DNA of 64,000 nt, from the NCBI GenBank assembly GCA_963705985.1, contig CAVPLK010000002.1, positions 39,855 through 103,854 on the forward strand. The letters are read 5' to 3'. Each line of letters starts with the position of its first letter. The stretch's first letter is position 1. Under the pieces are notes generated by a model. It was given only the letters and a program-made list of their open reading frames with translations. It made no database searches and was not told the DNA's origin. Made by a program: the position numbers and the translations under genes. This stretch comes from an uncultured Gemmatimonadales bacterium (GTDB lineage: Bacteria > Gemmatimonadota > Gemmatimonadetes > Gemmatimonadales > GWC2-71-9). Positions 46-64,000 of this stretch are shown piece by piece.

Positions 46-1093
46 CGGTCCTCCGGTACCATTCGAGCTCGGCGCGGGCCGGGTCGGCCAGCACACCGTC
101 GAGCGCCGTCATCGCCTCGGGCATCGGCTCGTTCTCGCAGTGCCCGACCGCCTCGTCGAGCAGCGCCTCGACGCGGGCGTCGATCTCCGCCAGCTCCTCG
201 GCCGTGGCCCATCCCGCCGCGGAATAATCGCGTATACACCGGTCGATCGGGTCCTTCGCCTCCCACTCCGCGATTTCCGCCTTGGACTGGTAGGACTGGT
301 TGTCGTGCTCCGCATGGCCCTTGCGGCGGTAGGTGACCAGCTCGATCAGGGTACAGCCCCCGCCCTGCCGGGCCCGCTCCACCGCCGGCTTGGTCACGCC
401 GTACACCGCCACCACATCGTTCCCGTCGGCCCGTTCGCCCGGAATGCCGTAGGCCGCCGCCTTGTCCACCAGTTGCGTCACGGCGGTCTGCTTCCGCATC
501 GGCGTGCTGAACGAATACCCGTTGTTTTCGCAGACGATGACCATGGGCAGGCGCTGCACGGCGGCGAAGTTGATCCCCTCGTGGAAGGCGCCGGTGCTCA
601 TGGCGCCGTCGCCCACGTACACCAGCCCGACCCGCGGCTGCTTCCGCATCTTGAACGAGAGCGCCACCCCGGCCATCACGGGCACCATGTCGCCGAGCTG
701 GGAGATCTGCCCGATGAAGCCGCGGTCGAGGTCGCCGTAATGAATGTTGAGCTCGCGGCCGCGCGTCGGGCTCTCCGCCTTGGCCATGTACTGCCGGAAA
801 ATCTCCAGCGGCTTGGCACCCTGCACCAGCATCGAACCGAGGTTCCGGATGAGGGGCGAGAGGAAGTCACCCTGCGTGCGGTCGAGCGCGTAGGCACTGC
901 CAACGCTGTCGGCTTCCTGGCCCAGCGAGCGGAACAACCCGCCGATGACCTTGGTCTGGCGGTACAGGTTGACCAGCCGCTCCTCGAGGGAGCGGGTCAA
1001 TCGCATGTAGTAGTACATCTCGTGCAGCTGGGCCCGGCTGAGCCCGTGCGGCGGGGCGGCCGGGGTGGTGCTCGGCGCAACGGTCGGTGTCAT
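38..1093 (-). CDS. Thiamine-diphosphate-dependent 2-oxoacid dehydrogenase E1 component alpha subunit (pyruvate or branched-chain type)
   Basis: 351-aa ORF with family blocks YRQTKVIGGLF, VYVGDGAMSTGAFHEGINFAAV (TPP-binding GDG..N region) and TYRRKGHAEHD. An E1-beta start follows directly. Confidence 0.9.
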   Translation of the reverse strand: MTPTVAPSTTPAAPPHGLSRAQLHEMYYYMRLTRSLEERLVNLYRQTKVIGGLFRSLGQEADSVGSAYALDRTQGDFLSPLIRNLGSMLVQGAKPLEIFRQYMAKAESPTRGRELNIHYGDLDRGFIGQISQLGDMVPVMAGVALSFKMRKQPRVGLVYVGDGAMSTGAFHEGINFAAVQRLPMVIVCENNGYSFSTPMRKQTAVTQLVDKAAAYGIPGERADGNDVVAVYGVTKPAVERARQGGGCTLIELVTYRRKGHAEHDNQSYQSKAEIAEWEAKDPIDRCIRDYSAAGWATAEELAEIDARVEALLDEAVGHCENEPMPEAMTALDGVLADPARAELEWYRRTDG

Positions 1094-7350: not shown

Positions 7351-9109
7351 GCCCGCCTCGCCCAGTATTCAGTGGTCCTGCTCGCCTGCGCTGCGTCCGC
7401 CGCGCCGGCGCCCTCCCCTGTGCCCGTCCCCGTCTCCGCTTCCACCGTGCCGGTACCGCCGCCGATCGATCCGACCCAGCGCCTGCTCGACAGTCTCCCG
7501 CTCCGGGCCAAGGTCGGCCAGCTGGTGATGCCGTGGATACCGGGCACCTATACCGCGGACGACGACCCGGGGTTTCTCCGGGCGCAAGCGTGGGTGGATT
7601 CCCTGCAAGTCGGCGGGATCATCGTCTCGATCGGCTCGCCGCTCGATATCGCCGCCCGGCTGAACTCCCTGCAACAGCACGCTGGCATCCCGCTCCTCAT
7701 CGCGTCCGACCTCGAGGGCGGGACGGCGATGCGCTTCAATGGCGGCACCGCCTTCCCCACCAATATGGGGGTGGCCGCCACCGGCCGGGAGTCGGACGCG
7801 TACGACATGGGCCGGATCACCGCGGTCGAGGGGCGCGCCGTCGGCATCCACCTGGTCTTCGCGCCCGTGGCCGACGTCAACAACAACGCCGCCAATCCGA
7901 TCATCAACACCCGTTCCTTCGGCGGCGACCCCTCCGCCGTTGCGGCCCTCGTTTCCGCCGAGGTGCGCGGGCTCCAGGACAACGGGATGCTGGCCACCGC
8001 GAAGCATTTCCCGGGGCACGGAGACACCGGCACCGACACCCACATCGAGCTTCCCGGTCATCGACGCGCCGTGGAGCCGGCTCGACTCGGTCGAACTGGT
8101 CCCCTTCCGGGCCGCCATCAAGAGCGGTGTGGCCGCCGTCATGTCCGCGCACATCGCGCTGCCCGGGGTCGACAGCGGCAAGGTGCGCCCCGCCACCCTG
8201 ACCCCCACCCTCCTGACCGGCGTGCTGCGCGACTCCCTCGACTTCAAGGGGCTCGTGGTCACCGATGCCCTCGACATGGGCGGCATCGTGAGGACCTATG
8301 GACCGGGGGAGGCGGCCGTGCTCGCGCTGCTCGCCGGCGCCGACCTCCTCCTGCAGCCGCCCGACGCCGGTGTCGCCATCGACGCGGTGGTGGCCGCCGT
8401 CGAGCAGGGCCGGATCAGCCGGGCGCGGCTCGACGAATCGGTGCGGCGCGTCCTCGAGATGAAGCGGCGGGTCGGCCTCTTCAAGCGGCGGGGCGTGGCC
8501 CTCGACCGCGTGATGGGCCGGGTCGGCACCGCGGAACACCAGGCGGCGGCGCGCGACGTGACCGCCCGCTCGCTGGTCCTGGTCCGGGACAGCGGCGCGG
8601 TGGTGGCGACGCTCCGCGCGACCCCGCAGCCGATCTCCCTCCTGACCTACGCCGACGACCCGTCGAGTACCCTCGGCGTCTCGCTGGCCGGTTCGCTGCG
8701 CGCCGCGGGGTACACCGTCACCACCTACCGGCTCTGGCCATCGAGCGGGCCCGCCAGCTACGACTCCGCGCGCGCGGCCCTCGCCGCCTCGCCGGTCGCC
8801 GTGGTGGCGGCATCGATCCGGGTGAGCGCCTGGAGCGGCACCATCAGCCTCCCGCCCCTCGTGGCGGAGCTGGTCAACGCCACCGCCGCGGCCCAGCCGA
8901 CGGTCCTCGTCTCGTTCGGCTCGCCCTACCTGCTGACGCAGGCGCCTGGCGTGCAGGGGTACCTCCTCGCATGGGCGGCCCGCCCCATCAACGAACAGGC
9001 GGTCGCGGCGGCGCTCACCGGCACCGCGGACATCGGCGGACGGTTGCCCATCGCGCTCGATTCCAGCACACCGATCGGAACCGGGCTCCACCTCGGAGCC
9101 ACCCACTGA
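7342..9109 (+). pseudogene. nagZ: Glycoside hydrolase family 3 beta-N-acetylhexosaminidase (two-domain NagZ-like lipoprotein), frameshifted as sequenced near 8056
   Basis: Frame 1 carries a signal/lipobox (VVLLAC) and the GH3 blocks ASDLEGG and KHFPGHGDTGTDTHIELP. The family continues in frame 2 as VIDAPWSRLDSVELVPF...VVTDALDMGG up to the stop at 9109. One extra base within CCCGG (8053-8057) separates the two frames. Confidence 0.85.
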
Positions 9110-47037: not shown

Positions 47038-47166
47038 CGCTGCCCCGCTCCCCCGCCCCCTGCGGTCACCTCACAAGGACCGAAGTCCATTCGCTCGCGT
47101 CGCTTTAGCGACATCAGCCGAGCCGCGGCTTCAGCCGCGACTCGCGCTGCCCCCCTGCCCCGCCCC
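47038..47166. repeat. Composite repeat: C-rich tracts flanking the double hairpin GTCGC ttta GCGAC - ATCAGCCGAGC - CGCGGC ttca GCCGCG
   Basis: Hairpins at 47099-47112 and 47124-47139. The whole 41-nt unit recurs inverted at 51361-51401 with one base difference. Confidence 0.85.
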
Positions 47167-51321: not shown

Positions 51322-51438
51322 AGCGGGGAAGCGGACCGAAGATCGTTACCCCCGGCGAGGCGCGGCTGAAGCCGCGGCTCGGCTGATGTCGCTGAAGCGA
51401 CACGGGCAAGAGTCACCCCGGCGAAGGCCGGGGTCCAG
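51322..51438. repeat. Composite repeat: inverted copy of the double-hairpin unit plus GTCACCCCGGC gaag GCCGGGGTCCAG hairpin
   Basis: CGCGGC tgaa GCCGCG (51361-51376), GTCGC tgaa GCGAC (51388-51401), and a stem at 51416-51433. Confidence 0.85.
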
Positions 51439-53852: not shown

Positions 53853-53941
53853 GGCGGCGGGGTGGCGGGGCGTGAGTCGCGGCGGAAGCCGCGCGATCTC
53901 ACCTCACCCCCTGTCCCCCTCTCCATGAGATGGAGAGGGGG
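53852..53941. repeat. Composite repeat: G-rich tract, CGCGGC ggaa GCCGCG hairpin, CCCCCTCTCCA-loop-TGGAGAGGGGG hairpin
   Basis: Stems at 53878-53893 and 53915-53941. Confidence 0.85.
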
Positions 53942-53983
53942 AACGCCGCACTTGGAACAGTCTATCATTCTGGAGAACTGTCT

Positions 53984-54337
53984 ATGCGCTACGTCGATGC
54001 CTATGTCATTCCCATTCCCAAGCGGAAGCTCAAGGCCTACTGGGCCATGGCGCGCGTGGGGAAGAAGACGTGGATGAAGCACGGCGCACTCGCCTACTAT
54101 GAGTGCGTCGGGGACGACCTGAAGGCGTCGTGGGGCCAGGGCTTCCCGAAGATGGCGAAGTTGAAACGCGGGGAGACGGTCGTCGTCGCCTTCGTGGTGT
54201 ACAAGTCGCGGGCCCATCGCGACCGGGTCAACGCGAAGGTGATGAAGGAGTTCGCCGCGGCAGAGGCCCCGATGGAGATGCCGTTCGACATCAAGCGGAT
54301 GGCGAACGGCGGGTTTACGGTGGTCGTGGGGACGTGA
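53984..54337 (+). CDS. DUF1428 family protein
   Basis: 117 aa: MRYVDAYVIPIPKRKLKAYW...KSRAHRDRVNAKVMKE. It is about 60-65 percent identical by eye to the paralog at 59524. Confidence 0.85.
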   Translation: MRYVDAYVIPIPKRKLKAYWAMARVGKKTWMKHGALAYYECVGDDLKASWGQGFPKMAKLKRGETVVVAFVVYKSRAHRDRVNAKVMKEFAAAEAPMEMPFDIKRMANGGFTVVVGT

Positions 54338-54925: not shown

Positions 54926-56116
54926 TCAGTTGTTCCAGTCGTCGCCCGGCATGATCCGCCGCATGAACTCGTCGAAGAGCGGCACCGTAAAGGCGGTGTC
55001 GCCGTGGGCCGGGCTGTAAATCATCCCCTTGGCAATCAGGGAACTGCGGATGGGGCCGAGCGCGGTCACTCGCCGCTCGAGGATGTCGGCGATGTCCCCC
55101 GACCGATGGGGACCCGCACCCAGTTCCGACATCGCGCGGAGGTAACGCTTTTCCGACGGGGTCAGCCGGTCGAACCGCACCCGGAAGAAGCTCTCGTCCA
55201 GCGCCGCCACCGCGGACCGGGACGCCCTGGCCACGTCGTCCGCGGTGATCGGCGACGCGTCTGCGACGTCCCAGGCATGCTTGCCCCATTCCTGCACGAA
55301 GTACGGATAGCCCCGGGTTTCCTTCGCGATGCGATCGAGCGCCTCCGGCGTCACCACCACCCCCTGCTCCAGCGCCGGCTTGGCGATCGCGCTCCTCGAG
55401 GCGGCCTCGGTGAGCGGCCCGACCTCGGGGAAATCGAACAGCCGCTCGGCGTATGACTTGGCCCGCCCCATCCGGCCGCGGAGCTGCGGCAGGCCCGCCC
55501 CGACCAGCACCACCGGGAGCCGGCGCTGCGCGGTCCGGTGCAGCGCCGTGATGAGGGCCTCGAGCTGTGTCTCGGGGACGTACTGCAGTTCATCCACAAA
55601 CATCGCCAGGGCGGTGTCCCCAGCCTGGGCGGCCTCGCCCGCCACCTCGAGAAGCGCCTGCAGGTCGTGCTCAAGGTCGCCGTTGTCGGCAAGGCCGGGT
55701 TCCGGCTCGAAATCGAAACCGACCTCGATGTCGGAAAATTTCAGCTTCAGCCCCTTGGCAAAACCAGCCAGGCCACGCAGCGCGCGCACCGCCAGGTCCC
55801 TGGCCTTGGCACTGTGCGACAGGCGCAGGAGACCCTGGCGCAGTTGCGGCGCCAGGATGGCGGGGAGCGAGCGATTTTCCGGCGCCTCCACCCGCAGGGT
55901 CTGGATGCCGGCGGCCTCGGCGTCGTCCCGCATCTGGTCGAGGAGGACGGTCTTCCCCACCCCCCGGAGCCCAACCATCAGGACGCTCTTGGTGGGCAGC
56001 CCGCGCCGCACCCGGGCGAGCGCGATCCGGACCGTCTCAAGCAGGTCATCCCGACCGGCAAGCTCGGGAGGCGGGGCTCCGGCGCCAGGAGCGAAGGGGT
56101 TGGAGACAGGATCCAT
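54926..56116 (-). CDS. AAA/STAND-like ATP-binding protein with C-terminal winged-helix region
   Basis: N-terminal NPFAPGAGAPPPELAGRDDLL, Walker A GLRGVGKTVLL, Walker B AMFVDELQYV, and a C-terminal LTPSEKRYLRAMSELG. Confidence 0.8.
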   Translation of the reverse strand: MDPVSNPFAPGAGAPPPELAGRDDLLETVRIALARVRRGLPTKSVLMVGLRGVGKTVLLDQMRDDAEAAGIQTLRVEAPENRSLPAILAPQLRQGLLRLSHSAKARDLAVRALRGLAGFAKGLKLKFSDIEVGFDFEPEPGLADNGDLEHDLQALLEVAGEAAQAGDTALAMFVDELQYVPETQLEALITALHRTAQRRLPVVLVGAGLPQLRGRMGRAKSYAERLFDFPEVGPLTEAASRSAIAKPALEQGVVVTPEALDRIAKETRGYPYFVQEWGKHAWDVADASPITADDVARASRSAVAALDESFFRVRFDRLTPSEKRYLRAMSELGAGPHRSGDIADILERRVTALGPIRSSLIAKGMIYSPAHGDTAFTVPLFDEFMRRIMPGDDWNN

Positions 56117-56121
56117 GCGCC

Positions 56122-56150
56122 ATTATAGTGAGTTTAGTCAGTTTATGCAA
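56122..56150 (-). promoter_or_regulatory. Near-consensus sigma70-type promoter placed for a leaderless transcript of the ATPase gene
   Basis: The minus strand reads TTGCAT (56150-56145), a 17-nt spacer, TATAAT (56127-56122), then GGCGC and the ATG (56116). It sits in a strikingly AT-rich patch of about 65 bp. Confidence 0.55.
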
Positions 56151-56167
56151 ATGTCATAATATCGCAA

Positions 56168-56177
56168 ATATCGATAT
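56168..56177. promoter_or_regulatory. Perfect 10-bp palindrome ATATCGATAT next to a direct ATATCG half-site (possible operator)
   Basis: TAATATCGCAAATATCGATATAAA lies immediately upstream of the -35 element. Confidence 0.35.
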
Positions 56178-56240
56178 AAACCTGCCCTCCAGGGCGGCCG
56201 TCCTCCTCTCTGCCCTCGGCCCACCTTTCCGCCGCAGACC

Positions 56241-57713
56241 CTACTCGGTCACCAGCACCGGCACCATGCGGGCATCGAAGGTCGAGTCGCCGAGTTCCCC
56301 CTGGCCGTTGCTCCCCCAGCAGTAGAGCACCTGTTTCGTGGTGATGCCGCAGGTGTGGTCCCACCCCGCCCGAACCGAGGCGAACGTGTGGCCCCCCGCC
56401 ACGGCGACCGGAGTGGTCCGCGGAGTGGTGCTGCCGTCCCCAAGGGCGCCTTCCCAGTTGTCCCCCCAGCAATAGCCGGCGCCGTCCACGGTCAGACCGC
56501 AGGTGTACTCGAGCCCGGCGCTGATCCCTGAAAACCGCAGCCCGCCCGCCGCTGCGACCGGGGTCGGCCGGATGGTCGTCGACCCGTCGCCGAGCTGGCC
56601 CTTCGCGTTCCCACCCCAGCAATAGGCGGCGCCCGTCCCGGTGAGTCCGCAGGTGAAGTTGAGGCCGGCACTGATGGCGGTGAAGCTCCGCCCCCCCGCC
56701 ACCGGCACGGGAGAGGTCGCGTCGAGGCCCGAGCCGTCGCCCAGCTGCCCGACCTGGTTGTTGCCCCAGCAGTGGGCGGCGCCGGCGGCAGTCAACCCGC
56801 AGGCGTGCCAGGCACCGGCGGTCACGGCGGTGAACGTCAGCCCTCCCGTCACCGGCGTGGGCGTCGAGCGATTGGTGGTCGTTCCGTCGCCGACCTGGCC
56901 GGCGCTGTTGTCACCCCAGCAGTACGCCGCCCCGGCCGTGGTCACCGCGCAGGTCAGGTGCATGTACCCGAGGCTCACGCCGGCGAAGCTCAGCCCCCCC
57001 GCGACGGGAGTCGGCAGGGCCCGGTCGGTCGTGGTGCCGTCACCCAGCTGGCCGCTGCTGTTGTAGCCCCAGCAGTAGAGGAGGGACGCGGTGGTGAGGC
57101 CGCAGGAGTGCAGCACCCCGGTGCTGATCCGTCCGAAGGTCAGGGTGCCCGAGACGATCCGGGCGTAGGGTTGTGCCATGGCAGTACCGTTGCCGAGTTG
57201 TCCGGCGGTGTTGTCGCCCCAGCAGTAGGCGGTCCCGGCGAGGGTGAGCCCGCAGCTATGGGACATCCCGCCGGGGCTGACACCGGCCATCGCGAGGGTG
57301 ACGGCAAAGGAAGAGCTGGAGGCGATCTGGAGCTGGTCGGCGTTGGCGGCGAGGGAGTAGCCGCGCCCCCGCACGGTCATGCGCAAATCGGAAAATGTGG
57401 CGACGCCCTTCACGGCCGAGACCGTCCTGGTGCCGGCGAGGGCGGTGCCGGACCCACCCGACCAGATCGAGAGCGAGACGGGATTGGTGGCGGTCGTCAC
57501 CGTCGCGCCCGATTCGTCGAGCACGGCGACGCGGACCGCGGGCGAGATCACGGTCCCGTCGGGACCGGTGGACGGCTGGACGGTGAACGCCAGCTTGCTT
57601 GGAACCCCGGTACCGTCGGGCCCGCTGCCGCCATTTCCGTCGCTGCAGGCGAGGACGACGGCGAGAAGTCCCGGAAACAGCCGGGACAGCTGGTGAAGCG
57701 TTGGTGCACGCAT
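56241..57713 (-). CDS. RCC1-repeat (beta-propeller) lipoprotein with N-terminal Ig-like domain
   Basis: Seven CWG-x-N-x-x-GQLGDG repeats. The N-terminal unit ends in GVATFSDLRM, like the Ig-like units at 44171-46009. The signal and lipobox MRAPTLHQLSRLFPGLLAVVLAC start at ATG 57713. Confidence 0.85.
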   Translation of the reverse strand: MRAPTLHQLSRLFPGLLAVVLACSDGNGGSGPDGTGVPSKLAFTVQPSTGPDGTVISPAVRVAVLDESGATVTTATNPVSLSIWSGGSGTALAGTRTVSAVKGVATFSDLRMTVRGRGYSLAANADQLQIASSSSFAVTLAMAGVSPGGMSHSCGLTLAGTAYCWGDNTAGQLGNGTAMAQPYARIVSGTLTFGRISTGVLHSCGLTTASLLYCWGYNSSGQLGDGTTTDRALPTPVAGGLSFAGVSLGYMHLTCAVTTAGAAYCWGDNSAGQVGDGTTTNRSTPTPVTGGLTFTAVTAGAWHACGLTAAGAAHCWGNNQVGQLGDGSGLDATSPVPVAGGRSFTAISAGLNFTCGLTGTGAAYCWGGNAKGQLGDGSTTIRPTPVAAAGGLRFSGISAGLEYTCGLTVDGAGYCWGDNWEGALGDGSTTPRTTPVAVAGGHTFASVRAGWDHTCGITTKQVLYCWGSNGQGELGDSTFDARMVPVLVTE

Positions 57714-57783
57714 GATCCCTCCCTGGTCGAGTGCCGGCCGCGGTCCGCAACGGCATGGCCACACGATCGGAAGGTGGCGTCAA

Positions 57784-58675: not shown

Positions 58676-59203
58676 CTACCCGCCTGCTGGCCGTTGAAAT
58701 CCGATCTGTTTCGCTGGCTTGGCATTTTCGTGAAGGAGTGCGCGGATCGCATCAAACACAGCCCTGAACTGCTGGTCGTACCGGGCCTCCATCGCATCGA
58801 GCTTCCGGGCCAACTCGGCGTGGGTCCCCAGTGCGACCCGCAGCTTCACAAAGGCCCGAACCACCTGCACACTCGTCTCCACGGCCACCTGGCTCTTGAG
58901 CACACTGGCCAGCATCACCGCGCCGTGCTCGGTGAAGGCCATAGGCACATGTCGACGCCCGCCCCACGCCCCACTTGAGGTCGCAATTTGCGACCTCAAG
59001 TTGGCGGCTTCCTCCGGCGTCAGTTGGAACGCAAAGTCGCCCGGAAATCGCGCCCGGTTCCGCCTGACCTGCTCCTTGAGCCGCTTGGTCGTTACGCCGT
59101 AGAGTGCGGCCAGGTCGGAGTCCAGCATCACCCGGTGCCCTCGCACCTCCCGGATCAGGCTGGCTACTCCCTCGACCACCACCGGATTCTCACTCTCGGG
59201 CAT
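58676..59203 (-). CDS. ORF6N (KilA-N-related) domain DNA-binding protein
   Basis: IREVRGHRVMLDSDLAALYGVTTKRLKEQVRRNRARFPGDFAFQLT...HVPMAFTEHGAVMLASVL matches the ORF6N family pattern. Confidence 0.8.
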   Translation of the reverse strand: MPESENPVVVEGVASLIREVRGHRVMLDSDLAALYGVTTKRLKEQVRRNRARFPGDFAFQLTPEEAANLRSQIATSSGAWGGRRHVPMAFTEHGAVMLASVLKSQVAVETSVQVVRAFVKLRVALGTHAELARKLDAMEARYDQQFRAVFDAIRALLHENAKPAKQIGFQRPAGG

Positions 59204-59312: not shown

Positions 59313-59339
59313 CTGGACCCACGCTTTCGCGGGGGTGAC
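59313..59339. repeat. Inverted, slightly degenerate copy of the GTCACCCCCGC gaaa GCGTGGGTCCAG hairpin module
   Basis: CTGGACCCACGCTTTCGCGGGGGTGAC. Confidence 0.75.
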
Positions 59340-59523
59340 GGCCATGCAGAAAGCCCCACCGCAGAAGTCGCAGTGAGGCAGTGAGTTACTGAGCGGAGCG
59401 GAGAGCGCGGGGTCGGGGGGGAGCGACCGTCTGGGGCCGACTTGCAAAACCATCGGGCTCCGGGGCTGGCGGCTCGTAACGTAACTCTTAGGATACAGGC
59501 TCACCACAAACCGAGGGGTTCCA

Positions 59524-59877
59524 ATGCGCTATGTCGACAGCTTTGTCCTGCCGATCCCCACCAAGAACCTCAAGAAGTACCTGGGCATGGCACGGCTGGG
59601 GAAGCGGCTGTGGATGAAGCACGGCGCGCTCGCCTACATGGAGTGCGTCGGAGACGATCTCAAGAACGCGTGGGGCGCCACCTTTCCCAAACAGATGAAG
59701 CTGAAGCCGCGCGAGTCGGTGATTGTCGCCTATATCGTGTTCAAGTCCCGGGCCCATCGCGATCGAGTCAACGCCAAGGTGATGAAGGAGCTGATGGGCG
59801 ACGGCGTCGAAATGGAGATGCCGTTCGATCCGAGGCGTGGGTTGTACGGCGGGTTCAAGGTGATCGTGGGGAGTTGA
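59524..59877 (+). CDS. DUF1428 family protein (second paralog)
   Basis: MRYVDSFVLPIPTKNLKKYL...KSRAHRDRVNAKVMKE. Confidence 0.85.
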   Translation: MRYVDSFVLPIPTKNLKKYLGMARLGKRLWMKHGALAYMECVGDDLKNAWGATFPKQMKLKPRESVIVAYIVFKSRAHRDRVNAKVMKELMGDGVEMEMPFDPRRGLYGGFKVIVGS

Positions 59878-59994
59878 GGGGGGGGCTGAGTTGATCTTCG
59901 GGCAGTGAGATCGGATATGGTAAGGCGACAGGCGAAGCCGGCATTCTTGCCCTTGGCACGAGCACCCATCCCGCAAGTCCCCCACGGAGGTCCC

Positions 59995-60942
59995 GTGCGA
60001 GCGACAATCTTGGCCTGCCTCCTATTGGTAACGGCGACCCCTGCGGCGCCCCAGGCCTCCCGGGTCCCCCTGCGCAAGGGAGATCGCGTCTACCTGCGAG
60101 TCCCCCTTCACGAGTTCCACCACGTCCCCACCAAGTTCCGGCTCTGGCTCGCTGAAGCGGCAGTCAGGGATTCGGTCGTGGTGGTCAATGGCGATCCGAA
60201 CTGGCAAAGCTCCGGCTTCCTCTACCCGAACGCGGTGCGCGTGTCTGACATCAGGATCGATGCGCGCAATCACCTCTGGCGTGCTCGATTTGCCCGCGGG
60301 CGGGAGCCTGACCTTACGCTTACGGTGCCCCTTTCGGATACCGCCGCTGTGATCCCCCGATTGGTCGCCGACTCCGCCGACTCCGCTGCGGTCGTCGCAG
60401 AATCCTACGCCGCCATCGGGCGGCGCATCTTCCCGGGAGCCGCTGACTCGCTGCCCGCTCCCATTCTGAGTCGACTCCTGGGCGTCATCGACTCCCTCCT
60501 GGGGGGCGACTCGCTTCGCCTCGTCGACTTCCAGGGCGTGCCGTACGTCGAGATCCCGGCGCCGTCGCCTGAAGGAGTCTACGTCTACTCGAACCTGCCA
60601 CCGCCCCGGCAACGTGGTGCGGTGATGAACAAGCTGGTCATTCCGATCGTCTGCCATCTCGGGCGTGCCGACACGAGTTTGCCCCGATCGCTCCGGTTCA
60701 GCATTCCGGTTCGAGTGACGGTGTACGACTACGTCCCGACGGGGATCGTGGTCGCAGACCTGTTGCTCGGAACGGGAGCCACGACGTCACGTGGGAAGCC
60801 GGCGTATCAGGACGTGACCTTCTACTTTGACGGAGAACTGGCCTCTCGGTTTGCCGCTGGTGCCATTTCGAGCCAGGAGCTGGTGGATCAGTCCGTGGCG
60901 ATCCTGAAGGGCAGTTATGTGGGGGTGGACCTCTCCCAATAG
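59995..60942 (+). CDS. Hypothetical secreted protein
   Basis: GGAGG lies 4 nt upstream of the GTG at 59995. The signal peptide is VRATILACLLLVTATPAAPQAS. About 315 aa with no family I recognise. Confidence 0.55.
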   Translation: MRATILACLLLVTATPAAPQASRVPLRKGDRVYLRVPLHEFHHVPTKFRLWLAEAAVRDSVVVVNGDPNWQSSGFLYPNAVRVSDIRIDARNHLWRARFARGREPDLTLTVPLSDTAAVIPRLVADSADSAAVVAESYAAIGRRIFPGAADSLPAPILSRLLGVIDSLLGGDSLRLVDFQGVPYVEIPAPSPEGVYVYSNLPPPRQRGAVMNKLVIPIVCHLGRADTSLPRSLRFSIPVRVTVYDYVPTGIVVADLLLGTGATTSRGKPAYQDVTFYFDGELASRFAAGAISSQELVDQSVAILKGSYVGVDLSQ

Positions 60943-61056
60943 GGCGTACGCCCATCGCGTGGGTCGTGCCCTGGGGCCCGTTTGGCTGGAATTATCGGAG
61001 GGGGAAGATTTTGCCAAAGTCCCGCAAGGCCTTGGCGCAGCCGAAGGTGAACGAAG

Positions 61057-61098
61057 TGGAGCGGAGGGGGATCGAACCCCTGACCCCCTGCTTGCAAA
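61057..61098 (-). other. 3' fragment of a tRNA-Ala(UGC) gene (anticodon loop to discriminator); putative attachment-site remnant
   Basis: The minus strand reads TTTGCAA (loop, anticodon TGC) GCAGG GGGTC AGGGG TTCGATC CCCCT CCGCTCC A. This gives a perfect T arm, a 5-nt variable loop and a 3' acceptor with U70 (Ala identity). No D arm or 5' acceptor exists upstream (CCAAC replaces CCTGC and the homology stops there). Confidence 0.7.
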
Positions 61099-61174
61099 GT
61101 TGGATCGTAAGTCATTGTCCTGCAACAACTTGTAGCACTCACGCGTCGTTCTGGGCATCGGTGTTGTGAGTCGG

Positions 61175-61199
61175 GGGCCCGAAAGGGCCCTTTTGTTGT
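61175..61199 (+). terminator. Rho-independent terminator-like hairpin
   Basis: GGGCCC gaaa GGGCCC (a perfect 6-bp GC stem) followed by TTTTGTTGT. Confidence 0.6.
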
Positions 61200-61205
61200 C
61201 CTGGA

Positions 61206-61636
61206 CACACAACAAAACACACAACAGGGGCCGATTTCGGCTGAAATCGTGGTTCGTTCGCCACATTCCATTTGCAGGCCGGAAGAAGAATTCCGCAACG
61301 ACTGCCAGTGCAGTTAACTTGTTGTCTTGTCTAGCGTTACTGGTCACTTCAGCGCCCCTCCATTTCACCCAACTCACAACAGACTCACAACGGTTACCCC
61401 CTTTGGATTTCGTAAGCAGGGGGTCGAGCTGATTCCAATAACTGAAGGCAGGGGGTCAGCGGTTTGATCTGAACTCACAACAGAAAGCCTGGTTCTCCCG
61501 CACCAACTCATGACAGAAGGGCTACTCCGCCGCCCGAACTCACAACAAATACGCAACGCTGATTCCATTTCGCCGAGGAAAGCAGGGGGTCCGAGGAAGG
61601 CAGGGGGTCGGAATGTTTGAGTTGGGCTCGCAACAG
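61206..61636 (+). repeat. Phased array of short direct repeats C(T/A)CACAACA(G/A), with companion motifs GCAGGGGGTC (x4) and GCTGATTCCA (x2)
   Basis: Direct copies start at 61206, 61218, 61372, 61383, 61473, 61506 (degenerate), 61538 and 61627 (CTCGCAACAG). Inverted copies are at 61163-61171 and 61618-61624. GCAGGGGGTC is at 61416, 61448, 61582 and 61600. GCTGATTCCA is at 61428 and 61558. The hairpin GATTTC ggct GAAATC is at 61233-61248. Confidence 0.75.
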
Positions 61637-61773
61637 GGACGCCTGCCGAGGTATTTTGGACCTGAGGGCGGTATCGTGGAAAACTGGGAAATCCCCACCA
61701 CGCGTTCACGATGGCAGCCCAACGGACGTTCGTCCGGGCGTATCTGAGTCTTGTACTGACCCTGGAGTAAGAC

Positions 61774-62157
61774 ATGGCCCCGCGTCGCACAGTGCTATTG
61801 CTTCTTCCACTCGCGGTGCTGGCGATCGCGGCTTGTGCTTCCGGCTCCGCCATCGTTACAGGCGACACGAGGCCAGCGGTCCCTCAGGAGCAAGTGAAGA
61901 TCTATCTCGAACCACCAGACACGTTCGAGGTGATTGGCCTCGTCAGTGCATCCAGCGACGCCGGATGGACGGATCAAGGATCACTGAACTATGCGATTGC
62001 AGAGTTGAAGAAGCAGGCTGCGAAGCTTGGAGCGAATGGAGTGCTCATAGTCGCCACTGGCGAGACGACGACAGGTGTTGTTAATGGGAAGTACTATTCC
62101 ATCCCTGTCACCGCGAAGACCGTTCAAGGCAAGGCCATCTTCGTCAAAGAGCAGTAG
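61774..62157 (+). CDS. Small lipoprotein (127 aa), cassette-like ORF 1
   Basis: GGAG lies 7 nt upstream of the ATG. The signal and lipobox are MAPRRTVLLLLPLAVLAIAAC. The C-terminal part (AIAELKKQAAKLGANGVLIV) resembles the small DUF4156/YbjQ-like lipoprotein fold families; this is inference. Confidence 0.65.
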   Translation: MAPRRTVLLLLPLAVLAIAACASGSAIVTGDTRPAVPQEQVKIYLEPPDTFEVIGLVSASSDAGWTDQGSLNYAIAELKKQAAKLGANGVLIVATGETTTGVVNGKYYSIPVTAKTVQGKAIFVKEQ

Positions 62158-62225
62158 GCAGTGACGTCAAAGGTGCGGTCTTACCAGCACGTGCAGCTGC
62201 GGAGTACGCGCTGGCTCTGGCGGCC

Positions 62226-62318
62226 GCCGCACCGTAGGTTCTAACTGAGGGCGACGCGGCGGCTGCCACGCAGCGCCCTCGCAGCTGATACGCCAGTCGG
62301 TAGGCAGCTCAGTTCACA
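62226..62318 (+). repeat. attC-like GC-rich imperfect palindrome, copy 1
   Basis: GCCGCAC..AGGTTCTAACTGAGGGCGACGCGGCGGCTGCCACGCAGCGCCCTCGCAGCTGATACGCCAGTCGGTAGGCAGCTCAGTTCACA. GAGGGCG (62247-53) pairs with CGCCCTC (62274-80). It is alignable to copies 2 and 3. Confidence 0.45.
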
Positions 62319-62336
62319 TCTTCGTGCAGGCGGCCA

Positions 62337-63251
62337 GTGGACCTTTCCCAGGTGTTTCAGCTCTTCAGCCGGCGCCAAGCGCCAGCGGTCAAAGGCCTCA
62401 AGACGCTCACCGAAGAATTCCGGAATAGAGTTCTGATGAGGGTGCGCGACACATTTGGACACTCGGGATACGATCTTCACCTTTGGACGGAGGTTCATCA
62501 GAAACTCACCTACTTGGTCGGAAAGCTAAGCCTCACTGGCATTCCGGCCTCTCAAGGCCACCAGGTGGACGTGCTGCGATTCCTCGCGACCTGCTCAGAT
62601 GCCCATTTCCTAGATTTTATCGAGGCGGTGTTTCAGACTAGCGCGATCGATCGCATCACCAATACCGCCCAGCTGGCGCTGGTCCGTGATATCAACACAT
62701 TCTTCAGCATCGACGATCTACCATACGCCCTCACCGATTTCGTCTGGGTGACTGGCACATCCGTCGTCCACGGCTCTACCCACACGGTGATGACCCGGAC
62801 CGCCATTCCGCAGGTTCTCTTGAAGGAGTCTGGCTCCATTCACGAGACCATCGTCAAACCGGTACTTGAACTGATCGCCGACCCGCGCTTCAGTGTCGTG
62901 AACACCGAGTACAGGGAGGCGTTGCAGGACTATCGCAAATTGGACTATGGGGATTGCCTTACCAAGTGCGGGAGTGCCTTCGAGAGCACACTCAAGGTGA
63001 TCTGCAGCGCCAATAGGTGGCCCTTTTCACCAAACGACACTGCTGCGCCACTGCTCAAGACAGTTGTCTCGAGGTCAAGCCTCGATGGGTATTTTGAACA
63101 GCCGTTAATGTTGATCGCAACGGTCCGGAACCGCTTGAGCAAGTCTCACGGCGGTGGGACCGTCCCTCGGGAGGCAGAAAAGCACGTCGCTGAATGGGCC
63201 ATGAACGCAACGGGTGCTGCCATCCTATTGCTGGTCCAAGAATGTTTGTAA
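62337..63251 (+). CDS. AbiJ-like abortive-infection protein (AbiJ N-terminal domain + C-terminal HEPN-type RNase domain)
   Basis: The N-terminus VFQLFSRRQ...LTEEFRNRVLMRVRDTF matches the AbiJ N-terminal pattern (FS-x-R ... LRNRLW). The C-terminus has the HEPN R-x4-6-H signature in ATVRNRLSKSHGGG, preceded by a conserved acidic helix (GSAFESTLKVI). Confidence 0.6.
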   Translation: MDLSQVFQLFSRRQAPAVKGLKTLTEEFRNRVLMRVRDTFGHSGYDLHLWTEVHQKLTYLVGKLSLTGIPASQGHQVDVLRFLATCSDAHFLDFIEAVFQTSAIDRITNTAQLALVRDINTFFSIDDLPYALTDFVWVTGTSVVHGSTHTVMTRTAIPQVLLKESGSIHETIVKPVLELIADPRFSVVNTEYREALQDYRKLDYGDCLTKCGSAFESTLKVICSANRWPFSPNDTAAPLLKTVVSRSSLDGYFEQPLMLIATVRNRLSKSHGGGTVPREAEKHVAEWAMNATGAAILLLVQECL

Positions 63252-63265
63252 TCGCTAATGGAGCC

Positions 63266-63352
63266 GCCGAACCAGCGCATGCAGGTGACGAGGGCGCATG
63301 TCTTGCGGCCGCGCCGCCGGCGCCCTCGCCGCTGATGCGCGTTTCGTTAGGC
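63266..63352 (+). repeat. attC-like GC-rich imperfect palindrome, copy 2 (best preserved, 87 bp)
   Basis: It begins GCCGAAC (63266-72; compare R'' RYYYAAC) and ends GTTAGGC (63346-52; R' GTTRRRY); these are complementary at 6 of 7 positions. The arms CAGCGCATGCAGGTGACGAGGGCG and CGCCCTCGCCGCTGATGCGCG pair with bulges. Confidence 0.5.
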
Positions 63353-63395
63353 CGCCCGCGTCAGATGTAATTTCATCTCGCCATTGGGAACCCGA

Positions 63396-63917
63396 ATGCC
63401 CAGGAAACATGCGTTATCGCAATACCACTGTGGCGTGGCGGCGGAAGCGTTTGCAGCCGGCTTGCTGGCGCGGTGCGGCTGCGACGTACTGGTGCAATAC
63501 GGCGCCAATCAGCCCGAATACGACCTCGTGGCAAAGCGTGCACAGCAGGCTCTATGGATCTCGGTAAAGGGTAGCCAGGACGGCGGCTGGGGCTTAACCC
63601 AGTCGTTCAAGAAACCAGGCGTGTCGTACGCTGAGGCCGCCAAGGCGTGGGCTGCGAAGCATGATCCGCGAATCATTATGTGCTTTGTGCAGTTCAAAGA
63701 CGTGGCAATCGACGCATGTCCCGAAGTCTATCTGGCACCAATCGGGGACGTAGCGAAGCAGATGGTCAAAGCGCGGAACGGCCTCGGAGATACCACGATC
63801 CAGACATTCCACACTTGGGCCACTGGCCAATGTGCAGGTTGGACTGACGCGATCCCTTCCTCCTGGAGTTTCTCTGCCAAACGGCTTGATCAGATGTTTG
63901 AATGGGCGGCGGCCTAG
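63396..63917 (+). CDS. PD-(D/E)xK nuclease-fold protein (hypothetical)
   Basis: The order of elements is AAEAFAAGLL (helix with Glu), EYDLVA (Asp strand), then WISVKGS (S-x-K strand). This is the classic restriction-endonuclease-like core. The start is ATG 63396 (TTG 63384 is possible). Confidence 0.5.
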   Translation: MPRKHALSQYHCGVAAEAFAAGLLARCGCDVLVQYGANQPEYDLVAKRAQQALWISVKGSQDGGWGLTQSFKKPGVSYAEAAKAWAAKHDPRIIMCFVQFKDVAIDACPEVYLAPIGDVAKQMVKARNGLGDTTIQTFHTWATGQCAGWTDAIPSSWSFSAKRLDQMFEWAAA

Positions 63918-63940
63918 CCAGCGCATACCGCTGGCAAGGG

Positions 63941-64000
63941 CGCGCTGGCTTGGGCGGACGCCACGCCTTAGGTTGTGAACTGAGGATGCCGCGGCGGCTG
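63941..64000 (+). repeat. attC-like element, copy 3 (left arm only; truncated by the window end)
   Basis: GCGCTGGCTTGGGCGGACGCCACGCCTTAGGTTGTGAACTGAGGATGCCGCGGCGGCTG aligns base-for-base with the left arm of copy 1. TGTGAAC (63974-80) is the exact reverse complement of GTTCACA at 62312-18. Confidence 0.45.

Follow-up and report, generated by a model that had tools for sequence, protein, structure and literature searches.

A tRNA-Ala(UGC) 3′ fragment as a candidate integration scar beside an integron-type cassette array in an uncultured Gemmatimonadales genome

The scar that integration into a tRNA gene leaves at the edge of an island is a well-known phenomenon. Among the canonical sublocations within a tRNA gene (anticodon loop, T loop or 3′ end), the anticodon loop is the classical class I site of tyrosine integrases that target tRNAs. 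The locus described here resembles the islands and prophages integrated into tRNA genes (class I; P4-like and other tyrosine integrases) in that a 3′ tRNA part, running from the anticodon loop to the discriminator, lies in gene-like orientation on a native downstream flank, with foreign DNA of lower G+C on its 5′ side and with unoccupied sites in relatives. It differs from them in carrying integron-type cassettes as its cargo and in having an arm with inverted extra copies of the tRNA core, which is unusual. The likeness is drawn from one end of the scar; neither an integrase nor an intact tRNA nor a second copy of the repeat was found in the window (the whole 64,000-nt stretch of DNA that was analysed).

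The cargo itself can be compared with CALINs, which are common (PMC8618304, PMC4889954) and whose formation by off-target insertion has been documented (PMC4889954, PMC8618304); integrons have also been reported in Gemmatimonadota (PMC8618304). As in a CALIN, co-oriented single-gene cassettes with unknown or defence-like genes are accompanied by attC-type hairpins, one of them validated by an external covariance model, and no intI is found nearby. Unlike a typical CALIN, however, only one of the three sites is intact here, and the array meets a tRNA fragment through a 674-bp region that is not cassette-like.

The orphan tRNA-Ala fragment and its junction with foreign DNA

An orphan 3′ half of tRNA-Ala(UGC) lacking its 5′ half had been predicted on the minus strand of the window, and this was borne out. 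Positions 61099 to 61057 are 100% identical (43/43) to the intact tRNA-Ala(UGC) of more than 10 Gemmatimonadales genomes by alignment and BLAST, and the 30 nt upstream of this block showed no likeness to a D arm or 5′ acceptor strand when aligned. The block comprises the last base of the 5′ anticodon stem (C31), the loop TTTGCAA, the 3′ anticodon stem, the variable loop, the T arm, the 3′ acceptor strand with U70 and the discriminator A, and CCA is not encoded. The minus strand from 61103 to 61057 reads cca-aC TTTGCAA GCAGG GGGTC AGGGG TTCGATC CCCCT CCGCTCC A, as had been described, but the identity block is 43 nt long, and 61100-61103 are four extra, non-tRNA bases. Similarly, the similarity does stop at the anticodon stem as claimed, although its limit has to be moved to one base inside the 5′ strand. 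The break therefore falls at the boundary of the anticodon loop, identity starting at nt 31, one base before the loop. Matches to tRNA-Ala in a plasmid collection also ended exactly at query base 43 (BLAST). The coordinates of this and the other features of the locus are collected in Table 1.

Table 1. Features on either side of the tRNA/foreign junction (window coordinates)
Feature	Position	Strand	Remarks
Ancestral flank F downstream of the tRNA (GTAACTCACTGCCTCACTGCGACTTCTGCGGTGGGGC...)	59313..59392	-	Right after the tRNA region in L078
Decayed tRNA 3′-end repeat CTCCGCTCCG	59393..59405	-	Positional homology with the 14/17 repeat GATCCCGGTCCGCTCCA of L078
Older inserted block	59406..61056	.	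98.7% identical to L001; absent from L078
DUF1428 gene in older block	59524-59877	+	
315/345-aa gene in older block	59905-60942	+	
Orphan tRNA-Ala(UGC) 3′ part, nt 31-73	61057..61099	-	43/43 against intact Gemmatimonadales tRNA-Ala genes
tRNA/foreign junction, G|TTGGAT	61099..61105	+	Fits integron crossover motif G|TTRRRY
Non-coding repeat-rich stretch, 674 bp	61100..61773	.	Proposed element-side att arm
Terminator-like hairpin GGGGGCCC-GAAA-GGGCCC with T-rich tail	61173..61192	+	Fold of 61150-61235, z = -3.9
Cassette gene 1, 127 aa	61774..62157	+	Lipoprotein-like N-terminus; GC3 0.64; weak sub-threshold DUF4156 match
Decayed attC-type site 1	62175..62305	+	Outer boxes GTCTTAC/GGTAGGC; both essential triplets mutated (TAC/GGT)
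Cassette gene 2, 304 aa, AbiJ-like	62337..63251	+	AbiJ_NTD4 + DUF7014 / Abi_C; GC3 0.69
Intact attC site 2	63266..63352	+	Matched end to end by external covariance model, 30.9 bits, E 1.3e-6
Cassette gene 3, 177 aa	63384..63917	+	173 aa from ATG 63396; GC3 0.67
attC-type site 3, 5′ part	63909..64000	+	R″ GCCTAGC (AAC -> AGC); cut by window end

The tRNA search proposed with the original prediction was carried out at the scope of the window: ARAGORN, run over all 64 kb, reported no tRNA and no tmRNA, and no second copy of the fragment was found in the window, even in degenerate form (up to 3 mismatches in 17-22 nt). A complete cloverleaf, and with it a functional tRNA gene, is absent at the fragment (ARAGORN; 5′ half unrelated). 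In Rfam the last 35 nt matched the tRNA-like 3′ end of tmRNA below threshold, at 17 bits against a gathering score of 47. A tmRNA, including a two-piece tmRNA, was rejected on the basis of this sub-threshold score, the full anticodon loop and 3′ stem, the 43/43 match to tRNA-Ala and the negative ARAGORN result.

A scan of the 35-nt 3′ segment against species-representative genomes returned 15 loci, all from Gemmatimonadota, of which 14 carry an intact tRNA-Ala(UGC) and the remaining one (L003) an orphan fragment. Because the 35-nt pattern occurs once per genome in all 15 matching genomes, tRNA-Ala(UGC) is suggested to be a single-copy gene, one to be restored rather than split. The L003 orphan, from another Gemmatimonadaceae MAG (203-251, minus strand), is a second tRNA-Ala 3′ part, which keeps both strands of the anticodon stem and has an altered loop (TTTGGGA). 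Its neighbourhood is of lower G+C (0.60) and contains a beta-lactamase-family gene together with unknowns, and the arm beside it is without motif copies. This scar arose independently at the same tRNA.

The G+C content falls from about 0.66 to the left of 61099 to about 0.55 to its right (windowed values of 0.62-0.73 against 0.53-0.61 around ~61.0 kb), and GC3 falls from 0.76-0.96 in the genes on the left to 0.64-0.69 in the three genes on the right; the DNA to the right of 61099 is therefore foreign. The profile is thus not unchanged across 61.0-61.2 kb, and the change in G+C content and gene character that had been placed at the fragment held, as did the position of the element to the right that had been deduced from the orientation of the fragment. 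On the plus strand, which is also that of the cassette genes, the junction reads ...CTTGCAAAG|TTGGATC. By calculation, TTRRRY would turn up at any one given position with a probability of about 1/256.

Unoccupied sites in relatives and older layers to the left

The DNA on the left has a counterpart in L001, a contig of 1.13 Mb from a Gemmatimonadales MAG (L016 is an identical record). Window 59351-61075 is 98.7% identical to L001 9828-11551, and L001 has an intact tRNA-Ala(UGC) at the matching place on the minus strand, with a flat G+C profile across the site. An intact tRNA-Ala is present at the same locus in L078 and L074 as well. Since the tRNA is intact in L001 and L078 and no drop in G+C is seen there, both serve as unoccupied sites. 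In the orientation of the tRNA, the gene in L001 is followed, after 82 nt of spacer, by a 17-nt copy of its own 3′ end (GATCCCCCTCCGCTCCA, 17/17) and then by the flank cttcgttcaccttcggctgcgcc..., which is exactly what follows the 43-nt block in the window; the fragment thus sits on its native downstream flank. In L078 the order is tRNA, 67 nt, the repeat GATCCCGGTCCGCTCCA (14/17) and the flank GGTAACTCAC...GGGGCTTC. No integrase adjoins the intact tRNA-Ala in the 12 other Gemmatimonadales loci checked.

In both the window and L001, this L078 flank (ancestral flank F) lies beyond the block of DUF1428 and 315-aa genes and is preceded by the decayed repeat CTCCGCTCCG, giving the window the order island, 43-nt repeat, older block (59406-61056), decayed repeat and ancestral flank. 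Judged from this arrangement, the block of 1.65 kb is an earlier insertion at the same tRNA, bounded by a decayed 3′-end repeat, and the site has seen several duplications of the tRNA 3′ end. It is a hypervariable, layered locus: on either side of the tRNA the window, L001, L074 and L078 differ from one another, and their partial tRNA duplications are of unequal length. The island boundary of the original prediction consequently stands in that the DNA to the right is foreign, but it is not a divide between core and island, as the 1.65-kb block on the left is itself an older insertion at the same tRNA. In the interval from one DUF1428 gene to the other (54.3-59.4 kb), a search allowing up to 3 mismatches gave no further tRNA remnants; the short decayed repeat at 59393-59405 alone was recognised, through its positional homology with L078.

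A number of further observations concern the same neighbourhood. Homology with L001 halts abruptly at 59351, L001 continuing with a PemK toxin gene and the window with an ORF6N gene. The latter (58676-59203, minus strand) encodes an ORF6N-domain protein matching the PADLOC candidate defence family PDC-S05 (E 1e-50) and lies immediately to the left of the ancestral flank, where the window, L001 and L078 have different DNA. The other window genes that resemble L001 or L074 genes (BTAD/AAA_16, YbjQ and the other DUF1428) are only ~70-86% identical to them; set beside the 98.7% block, this means that either the block was transferred recently or the less similar genes are paralogs. DUF1428 itself is represented twice, by paralogs at 53930-54337 (85-86% identical to the copy adjoining tRNA-Ala in L005 and L074) and at 59524-59877 (98.7%, L001), and the placement of a DUF1428 gene downstream of tRNA-Ala appears to be a conserved arrangement, here duplicated or stacked. 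The variable region between them holds a STAND/AAA_16 ATPase and a 507-aa RCC1-repeat protein (54926-57764, minus strand). An intergenic sequence of ~50-77 nt, 88-95% identical between copies, is found at window 47092-47140 and 51361-51437, L078 2294-2373 and L001 18961-19004, and may be a dispersed REP- or MITE-like repeat. L074 has, at 8021-8095, after a Big_2-like gene and 1.8 kb from the intact tRNA, an extra copy of ~80 bp of the tRNA-Ala 5′ half and its upstream region, an unusual partial duplication of the 5′ side at the same locus.

Two Logan data sets also bear on this tRNA. L076, considered as an occupied site, was discarded as a chimeric contig: in its positions 1-186 shared k-mers link the 5′ part of a Gemmatimonadales tRNA-Ala to the tRNA-Ala of an AT-rich rRNA spacer and to the 5′ end of a 23S rRNA, both from an unrelated organism. 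In ERR12037370, coordinate arithmetic places a 1747-nt contig at window 59353-61099, which is precisely the extent of the L001-homologous block together with the 43 nt of tRNA, and a 2199-nt contig at ~61821-64019, the latter being the only contig obtained from exact-protein look-ups of the island genes. The breaks at both ends of the block in this assembly suggest alternative contexts, either occupied and unoccupied alleles or several strains.

The repeat-rich arm and the cassette array

The stretch between the junction and the first cassette gene is rich in two motif families. Repeats of the AACTCACAACAG type lie at 61204, 61216, 61371, 61383, 61472, 61505 and 61537, with an inverted copy at 61162-61171; four matches within one mismatch were counted, plus looser copies, where 0.08 would be expected. 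The second motif, GCAGGGGGTC, corresponds to the 3′ anticodon stem and variable loop of the tRNA and is present in the arm as four plus-strand copies (61416, 61448, 61582 and 61600), which are inverted relative to the tRNA fragment. The window as a whole contains six matches to it (0.5 expected), five of them within 530 bp. In addition, 61443-61469 is 85% identical to tRNA nt 37-63, a 58-nt module is duplicated (61368-61425 and 61534-61591), and several of the repeat spacings are of 32-33 nt. The repeats are interpreted as a putative protein-binding array forming the element-side att arm.

No ORF of 61100-61773 gave a Pfam match. BLAST and scans found no relatives of the arm in phages, viral contigs or 78 other loci, and in plasmids matched only the 43 tRNA bases; viral contigs likewise contained neither the 42-nt att sequence nor the arm motif. 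Neither motif family (GCAGGGGGTC or AACTCACAACAG) recurs in the 78 loci, including the arm beside the L003 orphan. The tRNA-core copies, found in this arm alone among the 78 loci, tie the inserted DNA specifically to tRNA-Ala. The external covariance model described below detected no attC in 61050-61800. A hairpin at 61621-61723 (GTTGGGC...GCCCAAC) was considered as an attC and rejected, its boxes being in the wrong orientation and its score nil.

Beyond the arm lie three co-oriented single-gene cassettes, each followed within ~15 nt on the 3′ side by an attC-type member of one repeat family. The product of gene 3 has a weak sub-threshold match to PD-(D/E)XK (PDDEXK_5, E 0.06), which, beside the AbiJ-like cassette, hints at a defence-type cargo. 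Homologs of the 304-aa AbiJ-like protein were found at 56 metagenome loci with 25-64% identity, and in L019, L020, L022, L025, L026, L028, L047 and L057 they are bracketed by attC sites; these brackets are RYYYAAC...GTTRRRY hairpins, tight and seen at many loci. L047 has three attC sites of one family (...AAC-AAGCGCAT-C-CAGC...GCTGATGCGC-CnnAC-GTT...) around its homolog, and the covariance model was built from these three external sites only, as a mixed alignment of 11 attC sites yielded nothing but the AAC/GTT pairs. A generic structural scan (RYYYAAC...GTTRRRY plus hairpin) was abandoned as unspecific in DNA of 70% G+C, where it gave 27 matches, mostly inside genes.

Site 2 is the only clear match to the model on either strand of the 64-kb window. 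It runs from R″ GCCGAAC through an unpaired spacer, the L box GCGCAT/ATGCGC (which has a bulged G), CAG/CTG and a variable top to R′ GTTAGGC, and its bottom-strand hairpin has a z of -2.4. Sites 1 and 3 have arms with 69-77% identity to those of site 2. Neither site is matched by the model, the triplets of both are mutated and the piece of site 3 is incomplete; the essential AAC/GTT triplets are thus missing from two of the three sites. Site 1, which reaches only 6 bits with the model, has arms homologous to those of site 2, a long central insert in common with site 3 and a 3′ arm that by eye is ~23/26 identical to an L047 attC arm. Site 3 is 73-77% identical to sites 1 and 2. Neither the remaining 61 kb of the window nor any of the loci searched contains this repeat family. 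The central insert common to sites 1 and 3 (62210-62270 and 63944-64000) is ~57 nt long and lacking in site 2; it reads GCTGGCTykGGCGG...TAGGTTnTnAACTGAGG..CGCGGCGGCTG, and its element GGTTGTGAAC resembles the arm repeat GTTGTGAGT.

No intI-like ORF was detected in the window by tblastn with an approximate class 1 IntI query or by Pfam on the flanking ORFs, nor is there a tyrosine-recombinase integrase in the 2.9 kb of the element that are visible; such a gene would be expected at the far end. As the cassette array has no adjacent intI, the visible cargo is a short, partly decayed integron-type array that is CALIN-like. The description of the visible part of the element has to be amended to that of a cassette array with no integrase within these 2.9 kb.

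Site-specific integration and its alternatives

The fragment is probably an attR-type scar of site-specific integration into a stand-alone tRNA-Ala(UGC), with the crossover at the anticodon loop. An element would have integrated at this loop in a Gemmatimonadales chromosome, bringing its own copy of tRNA nt ~31-73, which would complete the gene at the far (right-hand) end of the element, and the host's original 3′ part would have been left behind, orphaned on its native downstream flank. The element would then extend to the right of 61099, with the att arm as its first 674 bp followed by the cassette array with its AbiJ-like, abortive-infection-type gene. In this scheme the duplication step and the binding of a protein to the arm repeats are inferred, as are a second copy, an intact tRNA and an integrase.

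Integration of this kind is favoured because the 43/43 match runs directly into the sequence found after the tRNA locus in L001, because unoccupied sites exist (L001 and L078), because G+C and GC3 shift abruptly at the junction, because the break falls at the anticodon-loop boundary, a canonical sublocation, and because the arm carries four GCAGGGGGTC copies as well as the 85% copy of nt 37-63. The single match per genome in the 15 genomes scanned also speaks for it, as an apparently single-copy gene would need restoring. Furthermore, the 3′-end duplications (17/17 in L001, 14/17 in L078 and the decayed copy at window 59393-59405) show that integrase-type events occur here, since integrase-mediated integration duplicates the 3′ end and simple gene disruption does not. 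Counting against it, neither a second 43-nt copy nor an intact tRNA or integrase is found within the window, no integrase lies by the tRNA-Ala of the 12 other loci and no viral contig contains the att sequence, the element-side half of the core (GATCCAAC) is a poor inverted repeat of GCAGG, and the junction fits G|TTRRRY with the cassettes pointing away from it, as they would from an attI. The tyrosine-recombinase footprint of the original prediction accordingly gains from the native flank, the unoccupied sites, the break at the anticodon loop and the 3′-end duplications, with the qualification that the junction fits the integron motif as well.

An alternative is that the fragment is the relic of an older integration, like the 17-nt repeats of L001 and L078, and that the DNA now on its right arrived later by deletion, replacement or rearrangement. 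The hypervariable, layered nature of the locus, with its partial tRNA duplications of differing length, would be in keeping with such a history, and the decay of two of the three attC sites suggests that the cargo is old. However, the 43 nt are themselves undecayed (43/43), the arm abutting them carries tRNA-core copies, and the composition changes exactly where the tRNA identity ends; a relic of this kind is considered unlikely.

Alternatively, IntI, encoded elsewhere, could have inserted one or more cassettes off target into the tRNA as a secondary, attG-like site, splitting the gene rather than duplicating part of it. The array (61100-64000+) would then start at G|TTGGAT, and the tRNA 5′ half would be expected at its far end. 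As with known secondary-site insertions, the junction fits G|TTRRRY when read in the direction of the cassette genes and of the attC top strand, all three cassettes point away from it in the expected orientation, as from attI, and there is no intI beside the array; CALINs formed in this way and integrons in Gemmatimonadota are both on record (see above). A secondary site for IntI needs GTT or GNT after the crossover G. The intact tRNA target, ...CAAAG|CAGG, has neither after its G and would be a poor site, and the 674-bp leader between the junction and gene 1 is long, not cassette-like and devoid of attC. Nor would a random insertion explain the multiple tRNA-core copies in the adjoining arm, or a break exactly at the anticodon-loop boundary. 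The essential AAC/GTT triplets are lost in two of the three attC sites, and the splitting of an apparently single-copy tRNA-Ala(UGC) would presumably be costly. Off-target insertion is thus judged quite improbable.

There is a slimmer chance that the junction is a true integron-type joint, left by an integron integrase that inserted a cassette array into the tRNA anticodon arm, or that the element is an 'int-att-cassettes' platform with an attachment site that also acts as an attP specific for tRNA-Ala, in which case integration into the chromosome would separate the integrase from the cassette array. Finally, an assembly chimera, in which two genomes were joined through a common tRNA-Ala sequence, is very unlikely, for although L076 is demonstrably chimeric at the same tRNA, many co-occurring Gemmatimonadales have an identical tRNA 3′ half and 59351-61099 is 98.7% identical to L001 when other L001/L074-like window genes are only ~70% so, the sequence ...GATCCAAC|TTTGCAAGC... 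must still exist in some genome, which makes the orphan and the arm real, and the independent short-read assembly ERR12037370 reproduces the flank and the 43 nt up to 61099, with the cassettes on another contig (coordinate arithmetic).

The fragment locates one edge of a mobile region to the base pair in the genome of an uncultured member of the Gemmatimonadales, which is of practical use for delimiting islands and for annotation. In concept the phenomenon is a familiar one, unless the junction proves to be the work of an integron integrase. The less common details of this scar are its setting among at least three nested scars, the inverted core copies in the arm, a cassette array that begins 674 bp from the junction and a junction that fits G|TTRRRY. 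The at least three nested scar layers across four genomes show the stand-alone tRNA-Ala(UGC) to be a recurrent insertion hot spot in this lineage, and integron-type cassettes, including an AbiJ-like defence-type gene, are recorded in Gemmatimonadota beside a tRNA insertion site. If the integron-type joint or the split platform were true, the capture of cassettes would be linked to the tRNA-targeted integration of islands.
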